Assembly (NCBI GenBank): GCA_934660865.1 | Contig: CAKUIA010000013.1 | Span: 46,851 to 78,850 of the forward strand | DNA: 32,000 bases | From: an uncultured Opitutales bacterium | GTDB taxonomy: Bacteria; Verrucomicrobiota; Verrucomicrobiia; Opitutales; Intestinicryptomonadaceae | Direction: 5' to 3' | In this document: positions 601 to 20,313 of the stretch, one piece after another | Layout: each line of letters begins with the position of its first letter | How positions within the stretch are numbered: the stretch's first letter is position 1 | Notes under the pieces: generated by a model | Seen by the model: the letters and a program-made list of their open reading frames with translations, nothing else | Told to the model about the DNA's origin: nothing | Databases searched by the model: none | Made by a program: the position numbers and the translations under genes

Positions 601-1821
601 CTACTTTGCCGCGGCCGCATTCAAGGTAAAGCGCCTTTTTAAAGAGCTTTGCAGCCGCGTATCGGCGTCGAACTGCATTGCATACGCCAAGTATCTTGCA
701 ACAAGGTCGTTGCGCAAATTTTTTGCAACCGAATTTTGCGCGACAATCCCCATAAGCCCCTTTACGGTGTTTTCCCTGTCGGCATTGCTTTTTATAAGCG
801 AGGCGTCTTTTGCGACTTTTCGGGCAAAATCCATTTGCGCTTCGCTTTGCATAAAATCCAAAATTTTTCTAAACGGCTTGTAGGTTCCGGTCGCAAAAAA
901 TTCGCCCCAAAGCAGGTCTATGTCGGCAACCGACAAGGTTGCGGAATACGCGTCGAAGGAAAAGTCGCACTCGTTTCTAAAATAGTTTTGGTAAAAAACC
1001 TCGTCGCGGCAAAGCCTGTTTTGCCCCACCGCTTTTGCGCCGCAAATCGCAAAAAGCGCAAGCGTTTTTATGCGCATATCCGGGTGCATTTTGTCGAAAT
1101 CTTCGTCGAGCTTTTCAAGCAAAAATTTGTGTTTTTTAAACGCAAATTTAAAAAATGAGCAGGCAAAGGGGTTAAAGCCGCGCCAATTACCCTTTAAAAA
1201 AAAGTTTAAGTCTTTGCAAAAAAATGCGGCGTATAAATTTTCGGGCGAAAAGTTTTGGTTAAAACCCGAATAAAAATCGGCAAGCGATTCTATTTTTATA
1301 TCGGGCCTTACCCACTCTTTTAGCGTAAATTTCGAGACGCACTGCGCAGTTTCGCGCGAAACGTAATTTTGCGCCGAAAATGTAATTTGGTAGTCGCCCG
1401 CAATATCCGACTTTTCCATTTGCACGGTAAACGAAAGGGGCAGCTCGATATAGCAGCCCGCCTTTTGCTGCACACCGCTAACGTAGTCGTCGAAAACCGC
1501 TTTCGCCGCGCTGTTGTCGCATTTCGAAACGGTTATAACGCATTTTATTTTAAAGGCGTCGCCGTCGTTTTTTGCCGCGTTATAGGCCATTGGCACATAC
1601 AAAAAATCCTCGCCGGCATATACCGTGTTTACATAGGCTATTTTCGCGGTATTAGGCGGCGACTTAAACCAATAGTCCATATTCTTGTCGCCGAGCGTAG
1701 TATACGAAACTACGCCGAATTTGCCGTTGTTGGCATCGGCATTGCCCGAATTTGCGTCGGCAAAAACCCCGCCGCCGAATGCGGCAAACGCCAATGCAAA
1801 CACTAACGCAAATCTACGCAT
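601..1821 (-). CDS. Exported protein of unknown function (406 aa)
   Basis: Signal peptide MRRFALVFALAFAAFGGGVFA. Its ATG overlaps the mcsB stop (ATGCGTAG, 8-nt overlap at 1814-1821). I recognise no family by eye. Confidence 0.7.
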   Translation of the reverse strand: MRRFALVFALAFAAFGGGVFADANSGNADANNGKFGVVSYTTLGDKNMDYWFKSPPNTAKIAYVNTVYAGEDFLYVPMAYNAAKNDGDAFKIKCVITVSKCDNSAAKAVFDDYVSGVQQKAGCYIELPLSFTVQMEKSDIAGDYQITFSAQNYVSRETAQCVSKFTLKEWVRPDIKIESLADFYSGFNQNFSPENLYAAFFCKDLNFFLKGNWRGFNPFACSFFKFAFKKHKFLLEKLDEDFDKMHPDMRIKTLALFAICGAKAVGQNRLCRDEVFYQNYFRNECDFSFDAYSATLSVADIDLLWGEFFATGTYKPFRKILDFMQSEAQMDFARKVAKDASLIKSNADRENTVKGLMGIVAQNSVAKNLRNDLVARYLAYAMQFDADTRLQSSLKRRFTLNAAAAK

Positions 1822-2923
1822 TTTTTGCGCGCTTTTTTGTCAACAAAGATTTGTCGAGCTTAAATACGGGGTCTTTTATAAAGCCCAAAGCCTTTTTTAT
1901 GTAAAGCGCCCTGAAAATGTCCCTTTCCTCGCTTGTCATATCGTAGCAGGCCGCCTCGCACATAAGGTGGGCGCACTGCACGCCAAGCATTAAAAAGTTT
2001 ACTATCTTGGCCTTGTTTTTCGTAAAATAGCCCATTGCAAAGCCCAGCCTTACCGCCGACAAGCACTCCAATGCCTCGGCCGAATTTATAAGCTCGCAAT
2101 ACAAAAGTTTGCCCCAGGCCCTGCCTATTTTGTCGAACAAAACCGCGGGGGTGTCTTTTAAGAGCTTTTTTCTGGCGTCCAGCTCGAAAGATTCAACCTT
2201 CTTTGCCATTTCGGTTACTTTTGCGATAATTTCGGCCTCCGAAAGCCCCATTGTGCGCTGGTTCGAAAGCTGGTACATAGAGCCAAGCGACTCGCTGCCC
2301 TCGCCGTTTGCGCCCCTTATTACTATGCCAAGCTGCGCAAGCCCGCGGGCGATTTTCTCGATTAAGTCCGACATTTCAAGCGCGGGCAAATGTAGCATAA
2401 CCGACGCCCTCATACCCGTGCCCGCATTGCTGGGGCACCCGGTTAAATAGCCGTATTTTTCGGAAACCGCATAGCTTAGTTTGCCCTCAAGCTCGCTGTC
2501 GAATTCGTCCAGTTTTTGCCAAATTTTGTCGAGCGACAAGCCCTGCTGTATAGACTGTATCCTTAAATGGTCCTCCTCGTTTACCATAACAACGCAGTCG
2601 AGGTTTTTCGACATAAACACGCCGCCGACTTTGTTTTTATTTTCGCAAAGCTCCTTGCTTATAAGCCTGCATTCGAGTAAAAAAAGGCGCTCGCTGTCGG
2701 TTAAATCCGACATCGCAAAAATCTTTGCGCCCCTGCCTTTTTTTGTGTTTTTTAGGGCGTTGCAAACCGTTTGGTACACATTCTCAAGTTCGTCTTTCGA
2801 CGCCGACGAGATGAATTTTGCGTCGGACAAATTGCGGGCGAGCCTTATGCGCGAGCTTACAATTACGGGGGTTTCGTTTATATTGTATATTCCCGCATCG
2901 TTTTCTATCAAAAATTTTATCAT
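1814..2923 (-). CDS. mcsB: Protein arginine kinase McsB (ATP:guanido phosphotransferase family)
   Basis: 369 aa. Motifs seen: SSRIRLARN, NEEDHLRIQ, GYLTGCPSNAGTGMRASVMLHLPAL, RGANGEGSE..YQLSNQ. The C-terminal LSAVRLG region is collinear with Bacillus McsB. Confidence 0.9.
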   Translation of the reverse strand: MIKFLIENDAGIYNINETPVIVSSRIRLARNLSDAKFISSASKDELENVYQTVCNALKNTKKGRGAKIFAMSDLTDSERLFLLECRLISKELCENKNKVGGVFMSKNLDCVVMVNEEDHLRIQSIQQGLSLDKIWQKLDEFDSELEGKLSYAVSEKYGYLTGCPSNAGTGMRASVMLHLPALEMSDLIEKIARGLAQLGIVIRGANGEGSESLGSMYQLSNQRTMGLSEAEIIAKVTEMAKKVESFELDARKKLLKDTPAVLFDKIGRAWGKLLYCELINSAEALECLSAVRLGFAMGYFTKNKAKIVNFLMLGVQCAHLMCEAACYDMTSEERDIFRALYIKKALGFIKDPVFKLDKSLLTKKRAKNA

Positions 2924-3450
2924 TACTTTTTCGGGCTTGTGGGTTTTAGCTCTTTTATTTTGTCGCGCAATACGGCGGCGTCTTCGTAGCGCTCTTCGGC
3001 TACGGCCTCGTTAAGCTGCTCGTTAAGGTTTTTAAGCAGATTTTTTGGAATCTTTTTTTCGAGAACTTTGGGCATTTTGCCGCAATGCCTGTTCGAGCCG
3101 TGCATTTGCATTAAAATTTCGTCGAACTTGTCGGCAAAGGCCTCGTAGCAATACGCGCACGAAACCCTGCCCGTCTTTTCGAAATGCGAAAATTCGGCCT
3201 CGCAATTCGGGCATTTTTTTGCGGCCGAACTCCTTTCGGGCTGCTTACCGCTTTCGCTTTCGGCGGTGTCTAAGGGCACATTCTGAGCCTGCCCCAAAGC
3301 CACTTGCGTGTTTACCAATGCCTCTATCTGCGCAGGGTTTTCCTTTGCGCATTTTTCGCACAAATGAATTTTAAACTTCTGTCCGTTTATAATTTTGGTT
3401 ATGTGAACAGTAGCCTTTTTTCCGCAAATGTCGCACTTGTAATCCGCCAT
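2923..3450 (-). CDS. mcsA: McsA-type activator of protein arginine kinase (two Cys4 zinc-finger pairs plus a UVR domain)
   Basis: The first zinc-finger pair is CDICGKKATVHITKI..G.K...HLCEKCAKE. The second pair is CPNCEAEFSHFEKTGRVSCAYCYEAF. A C-terminal UVR-like EERYEDAAVLRDKIKEL is present. The stop shares TAATG with the mcsB start. Confidence 0.85.
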   Translation of the reverse strand: MADYKCDICGKKATVHITKIINGQKFKIHLCEKCAKENPAQIEALVNTQVALGQAQNVPLDTAESESGKQPERSSAAKKCPNCEAEFSHFEKTGRVSCAYCYEAFADKFDEILMQMHGSNRHCGKMPKVLEKKIPKNLLKNLNEQLNEAVAEERYEDAAVLRDKIKELKPTSPKK

Positions 3451-12261: not shown

Positions 12262-14223
12262 ATGGACGAAAATTTTATATTAAAATCGAAATATGCGCCT
12301 GCGGGCGACCAGCCCAAGGCCATAGAAACACTGTGCCAAAGCCTTAACGCAGGCAACAAATATACTACCCTTGTAGGCGTTACGGGGTCGGGCAAAACGT
12401 TTACAATGGCAAACGTGATAGCCAAGCTTAACAGGCCTGCAATTATAATTTCGCACAACAAAACTTTGGCCGCCCAGCTTTATTCGGAATTTAAGGCTTT
12501 TTTCCCCGACAATGCGGTTGAATATTTTGTAAGCTACTACGACTACTACCAGCCCGAAGCCTACATTCCCCAAACCGACACCTACATAGAAAAAGATTCG
12601 GCCATAAACGACGAAATAGAAAAACTGCGAATTTCGGCGGCAAGCTCGCTTGTAAGCAGGCGCGACGTTATTGTAATAGCCAGCGTTTCGTGCATATACG
12701 GGTTAGGCTCGCCCGAAGACTTTAAAAAGATGATGGTGCCCCTAAGAAAGGGCGTTTCGCTTAAAAGAAAGGATTTTCTGGAAAGCCTTGTAGGCATAAA
12801 CTACACCAGAAACGACACCGTTTTAGAGCGCGGTTCCTTTAGGGTTAAAGGCGACATTGTAGACGTTTTCCCCGCCTATTTAGAGTCGGCCTTAAGGGTT
12901 GAATTTTTCGGCAACGAAGTGGATTCGCTAAAGGTTATAGACCCCCTTACAAGCTCGTTTATACGCAGGCTCGACAGGTTCGATTTGTATCCTGCAACGG
13001 CGTTTATAACCCCGCGCGAAAACATAGAAAGAGCCGTTCCCGCAATAAGGGCCGAAATGCTGGAACAAGAGGCTAAATTTGAACGCGAAAAAAAGTTCAT
13101 AGAAGCCCAGCGCATAAAAATGCGCACCGAGCAAGACCTGGATATTTTGCTGGAAACGGGAACGTGCTCGGGCATAGAAAACTATTCCAGACACCTCGGC
13201 AACCGCGCCGCAGGCTCGCGCCCGTGGTGCCTGCTAGACTTTCTGCCCAAAGACGCGATTTTATTCATAGACGAAAGCCACGTAACCGCCCCGCAAATAA
13301 AGGCGGCCTATTTGGGGGATTTGTCGAGAAAACAAAAATTGGTAGAATACGGCTTTAGGCTGCCCAGCGCGCTCGACAACCGCCCCCTTAAGCAGGAGGA
13401 ATTCGAAAAAGTTACCGGGCAAACCGTGTTTGTTTCGGCTACCCCATCGGAATACGAGCTAGGCCAAAGCGCGGTTGTTGCCGAGCAAATTGTGCGCCCC
13501 ACCGCCCTGCTCGACCCCGAAATGGTTATACGCCCCATAAAGGGACAGGTGGAAGACTGCGCCAATATGATAAGCGAATACGCAAAGCGCGGCGAAAGGG
13601 TTTTTGTTACAACCCTTACAAAGGCAATGAGCGAGGAGATTTCGCAATACCTAAGGGAAATAGGCATTAGGGTTGAATATCTGCACTCCGACATAGACAC
13701 CATACAGCGGGTGGAAATTTTGCGCCGTTTAAGGCTTGGCGAATTCGACGCGCTTGTGGGCGTAAACCTTTTGCGCGAGGGGCTTGACATTCCCGAAGTT
13801 TCGCTGGTTTGCATTTTAGACGCCGACAAGGAGGGATTTTTAAGAAGCGCCACCAGCATAATACAAACGGCGGGCAGAGCCTCGCGCAACAAAGACGGCC
13901 TTGTAATTTTATACGCCGATACCATAACAAAATCTATACGCGCCGCCCTCGACGTTTGCGGCAGGCGAAGGGCCCTGCAAAAGGAATACAACCTAAAACA
14001 CAACATAACGCCAAAAACGGTTAGCCGAAAAATAGAGGCTTCGCTTGTAAAGGCCGAAAGCAAAAAGCCCAACGCCAAGCTCGAAAAAATGGGCGTAAGC
14101 GAAAAAACCGCCCTTATAGAAGAGCTTAAGGCCGAAATGATGAAAGCCGCCCAAGAGCTGAAATTCGAAAAGGCCGCCCTAATAAGAGACCAGATAAAAC
14201 TCATAAAAAAATCGCAAAAATAA
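12262..14223 (+). CDS. uvrB: Excinuclease ABC subunit B
   Basis: Walker A GVTGSGKTFT, beta-hairpin YYDYYQPEAY, DESH box, helicase motifs, and the C-terminal UVR domain ELKFEKAALIRDQIKLI. Confidence 0.97.
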   Translation: MDENFILKSKYAPAGDQPKAIETLCQSLNAGNKYTTLVGVTGSGKTFTMANVIAKLNRPAIIISHNKTLAAQLYSEFKAFFPDNAVEYFVSYYDYYQPEAYIPQTDTYIEKDSAINDEIEKLRISAASSLVSRRDVIVIASVSCIYGLGSPEDFKKMMVPLRKGVSLKRKDFLESLVGINYTRNDTVLERGSFRVKGDIVDVFPAYLESALRVEFFGNEVDSLKVIDPLTSSFIRRLDRFDLYPATAFITPRENIERAVPAIRAEMLEQEAKFEREKKFIEAQRIKMRTEQDLDILLETGTCSGIENYSRHLGNRAAGSRPWCLLDFLPKDAILFIDESHVTAPQIKAAYLGDLSRKQKLVEYGFRLPSALDNRPLKQEEFEKVTGQTVFVSATPSEYELGQSAVVAEQIVRPTALLDPEMVIRPIKGQVEDCANMISEYAKRGERVFVTTLTKAMSEEISQYLREIGIRVEYLHSDIDTIQRVEILRRLRLGEFDALVGVNLLREGLDIPEVSLVCILDADKEGFLRSATSIIQTAGRASRNKDGLVILYADTITKSIRAALDVCGRRRALQKEYNLKHNITPKTVSRKIEASLVKAESKKPNAKLEKMGVSEKTALIEELKAEMMKAAQELKFEKAALIRDQIKLIKKSQK

Positions 14224-14263
14224 TTCTTGATTTTTAAAAGAAAATCATCTTTTTTATCTGTAA

Positions 14264-14359
14264 ATGGAAAGAACAGCGCACAGAGCAGAACGGCAACAGC
14301 AAACGGCAAGGTTTGTTTCGCCCTTCTTTTTTGCCTACTACTATTACTTCAAGAATTAA
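14264..14359 (+). CDS. Candidate leader peptide sORF (31 codons): MERTAHRAERQQQTARFVSPFFFAYYYYFKN
   Basis: Hand-translated ATG 14264 to TAA 14357-14359. Eight of the last eleven codons are Phe or Tyr (TTC TTT TTT GCC TAC TAC TAT TAC TTC). There is no clear SD. It sits immediately upstream of alternative hairpins and a terminator. Confidence 0.3.
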   Translation: MERTAHRAERQQQTARFVSPFFFAYYYYFKN

Positions 14360-14442
14360 CAAAAGGTTCTCGAACTTAGGCGCATTTTTACACCACAACA
14401 ATTTTAAAAAGCTCGGGAACAAATAAAACCCGGGCTTTTTTT
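14348..14442 (+). promoter_or_regulatory. Candidate transcription attenuator (three mutually exclusive hairpins A:B, B:C, C:D)
   Basis: A 14348-14356 (TTCAAGAAT) pairs with B 14366-14374 (GTTCTCGAA), with one mismatch. B 14366-14375 (GTTCTCGAAC) pairs with C 14411-14420 (GCTCGGGAAC) at 9 of 10 positions. C 14411-14417 pairs with D 14429-14435 to form the terminator stem, followed by T7. Confidence 0.35.
14406..14442 (+). terminator. Intrinsic terminator-like hairpin 27 nt upstream of the aldolase start
   Basis: AAAAA-GCTCGGG (14411-14417), 11-nt loop, CCCGGGC (14429-14435), then TTTTTTT (14436-14442). The stem is 7 bp with one G-U pair and can be extended by A-U pairs. Confidence 0.6.
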
Positions 14443-14468
14443 ATACAAAGAAAAACACACAACAAAAA

Positions 14469-15467
14469 ATGAATACTAAAGCAAAAGCATCTATAGAACA
14501 AATCCAGCAAAAATGGGTTGGATACAGGGAAAACCTGAAAGTTCTCGACTGCACAATCCGCGACGGCGGCCTTATGAACGACAGCAATTTCGAAGACGCC
14601 ATCGTTAAAGCCGTTTACGACACAATATGCGCTGCGGGCGTAGACTATATGGAATTCGGCTACAAGAATTCCGACAAAATCTACTCGAAAGACAAGTATG
14701 GAGCATGGCGCTTTTGCAGGGAAGACGACATCAAGCGCATTGTAGGCGACAAGGCCCACAATTCGCCCAAGCTTTGCGCCATGGCCGACGCCGAAAAAAG
14801 CGAGCGCAAAGACATTCTAAAAAAGAAGGACAGCCCGCTTGATATGATTAGGGTTGCAACCTACATCTACCAGGTGCCGCTGGCTTTGGAAATGATTAAA
14901 GACGCCCAGGACAAGGGCTACGAAACAACCGTAAACCTTATGGCGGTTTCAACCGTAAGGGAGCAGGAGCTAGACGACGCGCTACAGCTTTTGTGCGCAA
15001 GCAAGCCCAATGCGATATATTTGGTAGACAGCTTCGGCTCGCTATACGGCGAACAGATTTCGTACCTGCTAAGGAAATACTCTAAATTTGCAAAGCAATA
15101 CGGCGTTGAAGTCGGCATACACGCGCACAACAATTTGCAGTTGGCTTTTGCAAACACAATAGAGGGTATAATTAGGGGCGCAACCCTGCTGGACGCAACA
15201 ATAGCGGGCTTGGGCCGCGGTGCCGGCAACTGCCCGCTGGAGGCCTTGCTCGGTTTCCTGCACAACCCAAAATACAACATTCGTCCCGTGCTTGAATGTA
15301 TAGAAAAACACATTGAGCCCTTAAGAAAGAAGCTAGGCTGGGGCTACGACTACCCGTACATGATTACGGGGCTGTTAAACCGCCACCCGAGAGACGCAAT
15401 GAAACTTTGCGAAACCGGACACCGCCACGAAATTGTGGATTTCTACGATTCAATGACAAGCCAATAG
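14469..15467 (+). CDS. DRE-TIM metallolyase (HMGL-like); 4-hydroxy-2-oxovalerate aldolase (DmpG/BphI)-like
   Basis: LKVLDCTIRDGG (metal-binding Asp). Also VEVGIHAHNNLQLAFANTI and AGLGRGAGNCPLEAL, collinear with the DmpG catalytic domain. The C-terminal GYDYPYMITGLLNRH resembles the DmpG communication domain. Confidence 0.7.
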   Translation: MNTKAKASIEQIQQKWVGYRENLKVLDCTIRDGGLMNDSNFEDAIVKAVYDTICAAGVDYMEFGYKNSDKIYSKDKYGAWRFCREDDIKRIVGDKAHNSPKLCAMADAEKSERKDILKKKDSPLDMIRVATYIYQVPLALEMIKDAQDKGYETTVNLMAVSTVREQELDDALQLLCASKPNAIYLVDSFGSLYGEQISYLLRKYSKFAKQYGVEVGIHAHNNLQLAFANTIEGIIRGATLLDATIAGLGRGAGNCPLEALLGFLHNPKYNIRPVLECIEKHIEPLRKKLGWGYDYPYMITGLLNRHPRDAMKLCETGHRHEIVDFYDSMTSQ

Positions 15468-15476
15468 CAAACACAA

Positions 15477-15503
15477 AGCCCCGCACTGTTGCGGGGCTTT
15501 TTT
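15477..15503. terminator. Bidirectional intrinsic terminator between convergent genes
   Basis: AGCCCCGCA (15477-15485), loop CTGT, TGCGGGGCT (15490-15498), then TTTTT. On the minus strand it is followed by TTTGTGTTTG. Confidence 0.85.
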
Positions 15504-20237: not shown

Positions 20238-20313
20238 TGGTGGTCAGGGGCGGAATCGAACCGCCGACACAAGGATTTTCAGTCCTCCGCTCTACCGACT
20301 GAGCTACCTAACC
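20238..20313 (-). tRNA. tRNA-Phe (anticodon GAA), CCA encoded
   Basis: Minus-strand sequence GGTTAGGTAGCTCAGTCGGTAGAGCGGAGGACTGAAAATCCTTGTGTCGGCGGTTCGATTCCGCCCCTGACCACCA. It folds by hand into a full cloverleaf: 7-bp acceptor stem, GCTC/GAGC D stem, anticodon loop CTGAAAA, T arm GGCGG-TTCGATT-CCGCC. Confidence 0.97.

Follow-up and report, generated by a model that had tools for sequence, protein, structure and literature searches.

What controls the gene that follows uvrB in an uncultured, gut-associated Opitutales bacterium of the Verrucomicrobiota? In a 32,000-nt stretch of contig CAKUIA010000013.1 (the window; coordinates count from its first base), uvrB is separated from a gene for an HMGL-like (DRE-TIM) aldolase by a 245-nt spacer (14224–14468), in which a short open reading frame (sORF) with a run of tyrosine and phenylalanine codons precedes a hairpin and a T-tract. 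A first-pass annotation had taken this arrangement for a ribosome-mediated attenuator responding to Phe and Tyr, and both comparative evidence and the structural logic of the spacer support that reading. We consider it probable, from sequence comparison and folding models, that the spacer is a Tyr/Phe-sensing leader-peptide transcription attenuator of the aldolase, switched by the ribosome that translates the sORF.

The leader ORF (14264–14359, + strand) has 31 codons and a stop, runs from ATG at 14264 to TAA at 14357–14359 and encodes MERTAHRAERQQQTARFVSPFFFAYYYYFKN, a peptide ending ...SPFFFAYYYYFKN; in the identical contig L082 it is annotated as a gene. Codons 21–29 (14324–14350, + strand) read TTC TTT TTT GCC TAC TAC TAT TAC TTC, or F F F A Y Y Y Y F, as the first-pass annotation had stated for this 31-codon frame; four Tyr and four Phe thus fall within nine codons, with the Tyr codons at 14336–14347. 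The TAYTAYTAYTAYTTY run (a TAY(x4)-TTY pattern) occurs once in the 32 kb, where 0.10 matches are expected. As the attenuator class requires, codons for the sensed residues cluster toward the 3′ end of the leader ORF. Its location also fits the class: it lies on the same strand as the aldolase, between a candidate promoter and that gene, and its frame, the translation of which is predicted, is kept in relatives. The codon run is the proposed site at which a ribosome would stall when charged tRNA-Tyr or tRNA-Phe is scarce.

From the end of the run onward lie four segments that can pair in mutually exclusive ways. Segment A (14348–14357, + strand), the 5′ strand of a putative anti-antiterminator, begins at the last Phe codon, ends on the stop codon's first base and pairs with the start of segment B in the minimum-free-energy (MFE) fold of the window (UUC.AGAAUU, 14348–14357, with GGUUCU.GAA, 14365–14374). 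Segment B (14365–14389, + strand), the 5′ strand of the antiterminator, begins 7 nt past the leader stop codon and has two parts, 14366–14373 and 14382–14389. Common to antiterminator and terminator is segment C (14406–14420, + strand), composed of the terminator 5′ arm (14406–14417) and three loop bases. Segment D (14429–14442, + strand) is the terminator 3′ arm (14429–14440) together with a T7 tract (14436–14442).

B and C form eight contiguous pairs (14366–14373 with 14413–14420) and a second helix (14382–14389 with 14406–14412); jointly these two helices, at −10.0 kcal/mol, sequester all 12 nt of the terminator 5′ arm, the sequence AAAAAGCUCGGG being common in the window to antiterminator and terminator helices. 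The C:D terminator has 12 pairs (14406–14417 with 14429–14440) followed by the T7 ending at 14442, and a gap of 26 nt separates the T-tract from the aldolase ATG. Its energy is −16.2 kcal/mol (z = −4.65), a stability that none of 200 shuffles reached, and largely because of it the entire intergenic region folds with z = −4.2. The three pairings, the T7 and the distance of B from the stop codon lie where the first-pass annotation had put them.

These parts suggest the following course of events. Transcription would start at a promoter just past the uvrB stop, perhaps with read-through from uvrB in addition, and the 31-codon leader would be translated without a Shine–Dalgarno (SD) sequence, as is normal in this genome. 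While Tyr and Phe are plentiful, the ribosome would reach the stop codon (14357–14359) and mask B (14366–14373); with B masked, C:D (14406–14440 plus T7) would form and transcription would stop 26 nt short of the aldolase ATG. A shortage of charged tRNA-Tyr or tRNA-Phe would instead stall the ribosome on codons 21–29 and leave B free; B would pair with fresh C before D is transcribed, no terminator would form, and RNA polymerase would enter the aldolase gene. If no translation takes place at all, A:B would sequester B and termination would follow, which is the weakest branch of the model.

The geometry of this switch was modelled by folding nascent RNA without segment D, masking everything as far as 12 nt beyond the A-site codon, in the window lineage and in five other lineages that carry the element. 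When the ribosome is placed on the main Tyr run, B pairs with C in all six (−10.0 kcal/mol in the window; −15.1, −16.7, −19.4, −19.9 and −18.3 kcal/mol in the others). When it is placed on the stop codon, B is masked and almost nothing folds (−2.0 kcal/mol in the window; −5.0, −5.3, 0.0, −0.3 and −3.7 kcal/mol in the others). B lies at or just past the stop codon in each of the six, and the two helices have 7–12 nt of C in common. The masked folds of the six lineages thus agree with the earlier proposal that a ribosome at the stop hides B and a stalled one frees it.

Constraint within the species is distributed as expected of a leader ORF. The species cluster comprises 26 loci with aldolases 98–100% identical and 12 distinct spacer haplotypes; as a neutral yardstick, 4-fold degenerate sites of uvrB and the aldolase are 23–32% different from the window. 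Between leader codon 17 and the last base of the T-tract (14311–14442), 0–3 of 132 bases differ, mostly in the terminator loop, and the probability of two or fewer differences at a neutral rate of 0.25 is 3e-14, which indicates that this segment is under strong purifying selection. Inside it the F/Y codon run is invariant, synonymous positions included, the stretch 14360–14405 is wholly invariant, and changes in the segment D region are confined to the terminator loop. The first 60 nt of the spacer (14224–14283) differ from relatives at 1–2 of 60 bases. Leader codons 7–16 (14284–14310, + strand) form a substitution hot spot, with 12–13 of 27 bases different from relatives, no indels and no stops, and despite these substitutions the sORF frame is intact in 12 of 12 haplotypes. 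The pattern is what a leader ORF predicts: the frame appears to matter, the N-terminal sequence to be free, and the regulatory codons and downstream RNA to be constrained. As synonymous positions and the non-coding 14360–14442 are as invariant as the codons themselves, the constraint would act at the RNA level.

Measured against the neutral 23–32%, the hot spot at 14284–14310 has a binomial p of about 0.05; its flanks are nearly invariant, and relatives carry two further alleles. Relaxed constraint accounts for most of it, not for the slight excess or the allelic pattern. A long MFE hairpin (14281–14333) was rejected as a functional structure, its 5′ arm having 12–13 uncompensated substitutions in close relatives and its 3′ arm none.

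The same architecture is found in six divergent Opitutales/Verrucomicrobiota lineages, with aldolases 60–91% identical to one another. Genome and metagenome scans with the aldolase returned mostly relatives of at most 68% identity, among which only L001 and L002 have the leader; the closer lineages were found through exact-protein look-ups, and the nearest aldolases outside the species cluster are ~70% identical. Each of the six has the promoter-like box described below, a short ORF ending in a Tyr-rich run and then Phe, and a terminator, and the upstream genes differ; the leader thus keeps company with the aldolase rather than with uvrB. In the window lineage the leader stands behind uvrB and ends ...FFFAYYYYFKN; behind SMC in L108–L113 it is MKHLDDIANIETSSLEVGSTCVSTNAYYFGDFYYSYFMK, ending ...AYYFGDFYYSYFMK; behind carA, which has its own terminator, in L202–L205 it is MTTNFAGYYYYFTSLGVR. 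The remaining leaders are MASIFNSFYYYFTGVTS (L002), MQIKSVSYYYFFSYLLYVR (L207) and MQKTGLYYVYYFSYLLGVR (L001), the last located before the first of two tandem aldolase copies. Conservation of the sORF and its F/Y run, on which the first-pass proposal hung, is thus seen as a kept frame in 12 haplotypes and again in five lineages with other upstream genes.

The Tyr-rich run followed by Phe is present in 6/6 lineages (YYY(Y) in 4/6), as is the terminator after the sORF. Leaders other than that of the window contain 3–5 Tyr and 1–3 Phe, and leader lengths range across lineages from 17 to 39 aa. The comparison points to Tyr, not Phe, as the constant regulatory residue; the Phe/Tyr run emphasized at first pass is there, and it is its Tyr rather than its Phe that persists across lineages. 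Such runs are rare in the background: of 1315 ATG-sORFs in 353 kb of verrucomicrobial loci (both strands), nine reach six or more F/Y per 10 residues; the leaders account for six of these, and for all four YYY-containing sORFs among the 1315. Some 140 more distant loci include none with an F/Y-rich sORF plus terminator close to the aldolase start.

The terminator arms vary between lineages, and the sequence of B varies with them. Register-anchored pair tables were used to follow this, because in MAFFT alignments from B to D the helices of the window and of L108 lost their register. In these tables, which take their register from the predicted helices, were fitted to the predicted structures and so lean toward structure, three B:C pair positions have changes in both partners and six a wobble-compatible change in one partner, with no pair broken, which is the covariation that the first-pass annotation had proposed to look for.

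Two side observations concern the arrangement in particular lineages. The aldolase tandem duplication of L001 (L001:2925–4950) consists of copies 91% identical, with a Tyr-rich leader and terminator before the first copy only. In L202 (L202:2874–3000) and L205, the gap between terminator and aldolase holds an inverted repeat that is rich in GC (GGCGCGGGCGG...CCGCCTGCGCC) and lacks a T-tract; this region might serve as an additional regulatory element or as a promoter.

Where would transcription of the leader begin? Just past uvrB lies a promoter-like region (14226–14257, + strand), formed by a CTTGATT box (14226–14232) after an A-rich tract and a T-rich hexamer (14250–14257) ~17–19 nt downstream. 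All six lineages share the order of A-tract, CTTG(A/C)(A/T)(A/T) box, 17 nt, hexamer ending in T, 8–17 nt and sORF ATG, and the distance from the box to the sORF is constant across them. Box and spacing suggest a dedicated promoter, with a 5′ leader before the sORF AUG that would be very short or absent. A separate aldolase promoter after the terminator, an arrangement the first-pass annotation had set against its own proposal, is hard to fit, because 26 nt remain before the ATG and the box is fixed upstream of the sORF in six lineages. The absence of an obvious SD from the sORF, raised as a caveat at first pass, is real and also moot, because most window genes are without one: a loose SD-like motif precedes just 4 of the 24, and the start regions are A-rich. 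SD-poor, A-rich gene starts of this kind have been reported for Bacteroidota.

A second line of evidence comes from Clostridia. Neighbour clustering of 160 more distant aldolase loci brought out 36 Lachnospiraceae/Clostridia loci (in L027–L080 and L159–L190) in which an orthologue, 52–56% identical, lies 3–160 nt downstream of tyrS on the same strand, with no terminator-like site in 35 of the 36 tyrS–aldolase spacers. Of 13 tyrS-linked loci scanned, 10 have a T-box above the Rfam gathering score before tyrS; 33/36 have the T-box sequence motif upstream, and the specifier motif in 33 tyrS-type T-box loci is GAA-UAC-A (Tyr). Convergent and nearby in 26 loci is aroC (chorismate synthase). Given the Tyr leader in Opitutales and the Tyr T-box with tyrS in Lachnospiraceae, two unrelated mechanisms, one in each phylum, would appear to have brought the same gene family under the control of tRNA-Tyr charging. 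The regulatory link of a DRE-TIM aldolase to these amino acids, called unexpected at first pass, thereby gains independent support from the T-box–tyrS–aldolase operons.

L031:2373–5000 exemplifies the layout of T-box (UAC), tyrS and aldolase, frequently with aroC in convergent orientation. In 26 loci the gene after the aldolase is GH25 lysozyme-like, and 6 of the Lachnospiraceae loci have tgt (queuine tRNA-ribosyltransferase) downstream. A TwoAYGGAY RNA (RF01731, 103.8 bits) at L045:8524–8687 (− strand), also in Lachnospiraceae, is unrelated to the leader.

Several observations weigh against an attenuator at this locus. A generic sigma-70 scan reported no site at 14226–14257, where the −10 element is poor, and as that scan missed the site, the promoter, including the −10 assignment, counts as one that we infer. 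The A:B helix, at −4.1 kcal/mol (z = −1.5), is weak alone; an A:B-type hairpin appears in the 5′-part MFE fold of 4/5 other lineages and is not clearly formed in L207. The gain from B:C in the window beats 95.5% of spacer shuffles (p = 0.046), and the same test in four lineages (p = 0.046, 0.0055, 0.09 and 0.096) is marginal lineage by lineage, with a Fisher combined p of 0.001; the lean of the covariation tables toward structure belongs here too. In equilibrium folding with ribosome masks the terminator wins at every ribosome position (P = 0.78–0.97), so that the model rests on co-transcriptional kinetics, as in trp; in classical attenuators, too, the terminator dominates at equilibrium and the choice is kinetic. 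Four related lineages (L107, L194, L198 and L206) have the aldolase without any leader, and in L202 ~125 nt lie between terminator and aldolase ATG, which leaves room for a second promoter. The aldolase is not known as a Tyr/Phe biosynthesis gene, and in another Clostridia lineage (L053:1760–4990, L185 and L191:414–3496) a homologue, ~50% identical, stands behind thrS and a T-box, the specifier of which is ACC (Thr) as read in L053 only; the aldolase family thus adjoins two different aminoacyl-tRNA synthetase genes. Taken by itself the window gives moderate evidence for an attenuator, and the reading would be a plausible guess; the case is strong only together with the comparative data.

Could the hairpin at 14406–14442 be a plain uvrB terminator, with the sORF and the A/B complementarity due to chance in a T/A-rich spacer and the aldolase served by its own promoter? 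No other strong terminator follows uvrB: the first hairpin past the gene (14228–14247), considered as a separate uvrB terminator, was rejected as not significant (−4.8 kcal/mol, z = −1.1). A:B and B:C are moreover weak within a single sequence, and L107, L194 and L198 show just such a plain upstream-gene terminator and then the aldolase. Against this stand the recurrence of sORF and terminator behind SMC, carA and other genes in five lineages, the mere 26 nt from T-tract to ATG, the apparent purifying selection on 14311–14442 and the near absence elsewhere of comparable F/Y sORFs, and we regard a plain terminator as extremely improbable. Part of this caveat, which the first-pass annotation had itself entered, does stand, since the sole other hairpin after uvrB is weak and the attenuator terminator probably ends uvrB transcripts as well; that the hairpin is nothing else is contradicted by the leader architecture behind other genes. 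The sORF might alternatively encode a functional Tyr/Phe-rich micropeptide (a small hydrophobic or membrane peptide, or the precursor of a modified peptide), followed by an ordinary leaky gene end. Its YYY(Y)F core is kept at the peptide level in six lineages, and some leader peptides, peTrpL among them, are known to act in trans. A peptide function is nevertheless very unlikely: the N-terminal half varies freely and lengths run from 17 to 39 aa, the invariance of synonymous sites and of the non-coding 14360–14442 speaks for RNA, the position of the stop codon relative to B is fixed across all the lineages, and the hydrophobic stretch is too short to cross a membrane.

Two further readings keep a regulatory switch and change what it senses. 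In one, a ligand or RNA-binding protein (in the manner of a riboswitch, or of TRAP or PyrR) would choose between terminator and antiterminator, and translation of the sORF would be incidental; the invariance of the 14360–14405 spacer in the species cluster exceeds the needs of a minimal attenuator, and the intergenic region is more stable than shuffles. Between lineages, however, the spacer sequence is not conserved and no common aptamer-like structure is visible. The long MFE hairpin is not conserved either, no Rfam family matches, and what is conserved between lineages is what a ribosome switch needs, namely a Tyr-rich ORF, a stop next to B and the exclusivity of B:C and C:D. Such a sensor seems very unlikely to us. 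The other reading accepts a leader-peptide attenuator and has it report general translation stress, for instance from ribosome-targeting antibiotics, from the stringent response or from aromatic codons in a row being decoded slowly, and not Tyr/Phe supply in particular. Attenuators that answer drug-induced stalling are known, the aldolase has no established Tyr/Phe metabolic role, and the homologue behind thrS in one lineage would suit a broader signal. Little credence is due to it all the same, as one codon family (Tyr, flanked by Phe) is enriched in 6/6 lineages, a hallmark of amino-acid-specific attenuators, and the Lachnospiraceae gene lies under a Tyr-specifier T-box with tyrS. A ribosome-switched leader that senses Tyr and Phe thus accounts best for the spacer.

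What the regulated gene does is a separate matter. The predicted target (14469–15467, + strand) is monocistronic and encodes an aldolase of 332 aa with HMGL-like (DRE-TIM) as its sole Pfam match and the motifs DCTIRDGG and HAHNN. It scores below the cut-off of every named NCBIfam family (TIGR03217, 109.2 bits versus 286; NF006049, 120.7 versus 229), and Pfam finds no DmpG communication domain. The closest solved structure, 3dxi, is an uncharacterised 'putative aldolase', and literature searches on the family, or on DRE-TIM plus shikimate, returned nothing specific. With the DmpG/BphI 4-hydroxy-2-oxovalerate aldolases it shares the DRE-TIM/HMGL fold and the metal/substrate motifs DxxxRDG and HxH; DmpG has His after RDG(S/G), whereas the window aldolase has Leu, and the missing communication-domain match and scores far under the equivalog cut-offs place it outside DmpG/MhpE/BphI. 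The first-pass label 'DmpG-like' is therefore apt for the DRE-TIM/HMGL superfamily and not for the DmpG equivalog.

The attenuator very probably ties this uncharacterised aldolase to the supply of tyrosine or aromatic amino acids. One speculative and rather doubtful proposal goes further: the enzyme may be an unrecognised supplier of aromatic amino acids (tyrosine), for example by joining pyruvate and erythrose 4-phosphate to DAHP (the 7-phosphate of 3-deoxy-D-arabino-heptulosonate), a phosphoenolpyruvate (PEP)-independent entry into the shikimate pathway. A role in aromatic supply is suggested because two unrelated tRNA-charging sensors appear to control the gene in Opitutales and Lachnospiraceae and because aroC adjoins it in the latter. 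DAHP comes to mind because Corynebacterium glutamicum aroR, the one mixed Phe/Tyr leader known, controls DAHP synthase, because DAHP is formally a 2-keto-3-deoxy acid, the product type of pyruvate aldolases, and because the orthologue in Latescibacterota lies behind an acid-sugar dehydratase-like gene, which fits 2-keto-3-deoxy-acid chemistry. DAHP synthase is reported to be missing from many otherwise shikimate-competent genomes, and KDPGal aldolase, a pyruvate aldolase, has been cited as its surrogate (PMC3018139); if the proposal is true, this family might fill the 'missing DAHP synthase' gaps of such genome surveys (PMC3018139). The family is widespread in gut Lachnospiraceae, Verrucomicrobiota and Latescibacterota, and its regulatory logic is a clue to its function. 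In the Latescibacterota loci (L012–L019, for example L019:2385–3866), the orthologue is ~61% identical and stands behind a mandelate racemase/enolase-superfamily gene on the same strand (7 loci); this pairing suggests a dehydratase with a 2-keto-3-deoxy-acid aldolase.

The leader can be hidden by annotation. A T-to-A change in the terminator loop (window 14424) in relatives L081 and L091–L098 (proteins P0001, P0124, P0125, P0129 and P0134) deletes an in-frame TAA; gene callers then start the aldolase 46 codons earlier, for a product of 378 aa. The extended call begins at a TTG inside the leader ORF and crosses the terminator hairpin (window 14331–14468). This 46-codon extension looks like an annotation artefact that conceals the leader, and such calls in several relatives are a trap for anyone who searches for the element.

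The order of genes around the spacer is U32 peptidase, an uncharacterised gene, OGG glycosylase, uvrB, the 245-nt spacer and the aldolase, followed by a convergent, uncharacterised 710-aa gene. The upstream gene uvrB (12262–14223, + strand; Pfam UvrB_inter, UvrB, UVR and Helicase_C domains) is context, and is judged to lie outside the regulatory unit from the position of the leader behind SMC, carA or other genes in other lineages. The aldolase shares a 90% protein cluster with NCBI MDY6068840.1, 'aldolase catalytic domain-containing protein [Opitutales bacterium]', and identical or near-identical contigs originate from human and pig gut metagenomes. No Aro gene was found in the 32-kb window. 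A GC-rich strong hairpin of 11 pairs (15475–15500) lies between the convergent aldolase and 710-aa genes; called as a minus-strand terminator by the scan, it could by its position end the aldolase transcript too. The sole tRNA gene of the window, tRNA-Phe (GAA) at 20238–20313 (− strand), is 5.8 kb from the Phe/Tyr leader, a nearness that is probably coincidence. At 1814–3450 (− strand), an ATP:guanido phosphotransferase (McsB-like protein arginine kinase) adjoins a small UVR-motif protein (McsA-like).

How does the element compare with known regulators? At the Rfam gathering threshold the sole match in the window is one tRNA, and the leader element falls in no family; among the Rfam leader families (Phe, Thr, Leu, His, Trp and L20) the best sub-threshold match is Thr_leader at 19.6 bits versus 55 (E = 0.31), mostly terminator-driven and at chance level. 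Its layout is that of the Escherichia coli class of pheL–pheA, pheM–pheST and trpL/hisL/leuL/thrL, as the first-pass annotation had recognized in invoking the pheA, pheST and trp leaders: a short ORF with the sensed codons near its 3′ end, alternative 1:2, 2:3 and 3:4 helices, and an intrinsic terminator just before the regulated gene. Locally the peptide PFFFA resembles E. coli PheL. Members of that class belong to Proteobacteria and have known biosynthetic or charging targets (pheA and pheST regulation is described in PMC11802643), whereas the window element belongs to Verrucomicrobiota, precedes an uncharacterised DRE-TIM aldolase, lacks sequence or covariance-model homology to the class, has Tyr as its constant residue and probably undergoes SD-less translation from a 5′ end that is very short. 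The Tyr T-box (RF00230) is alike in sensing tRNA-Tyr charging, in choosing between terminator and antiterminator and in its orthologous aldolase target; unlike the window leader, it binds tRNA directly and involves no ribosome and no leader peptide. The T-box model has no match in the window, T-boxes being found only in the Clostridia loci, and the relation is one of convergent regulation, not membership.

Most descriptions of leader-peptide attenuation concern Proteobacteria, Actinobacteria and a few Firmicutes, and we know of no leader-peptide attenuator of Verrucomicrobiota; the searchable literature yielded no tyrosine-run leader and no leader-peptide attenuation in that phylum. The conserved Tyr-run leader would extend this form of control to Verrucomicrobiota, a phylum with SD-poor initiation. 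In specificity its nearest precedent is C. glutamicum aroR, a leader with a Phe-Tyr-Phe motif that precedes aroF, the gene for DAHP synthase, and acts by ribosome stalling (Neshat et al. 2014, as given in PMC11802643); according to PMC11802643, aroR was tested experimentally and only Phe limitation had an effect. Both leaders mix Phe and Tyr codons. They come from different phyla and have no sequence relationship, and the one controls a DAHP synthase, the other an aldolase known from sequence alone. Where Phe governs aroR, the leaders of the window type, likewise read here from sequence, are dominated by 3–5 Tyr codons, and would add to the attenuator class a tyrosine-dominated specificity that is not in Rfam.

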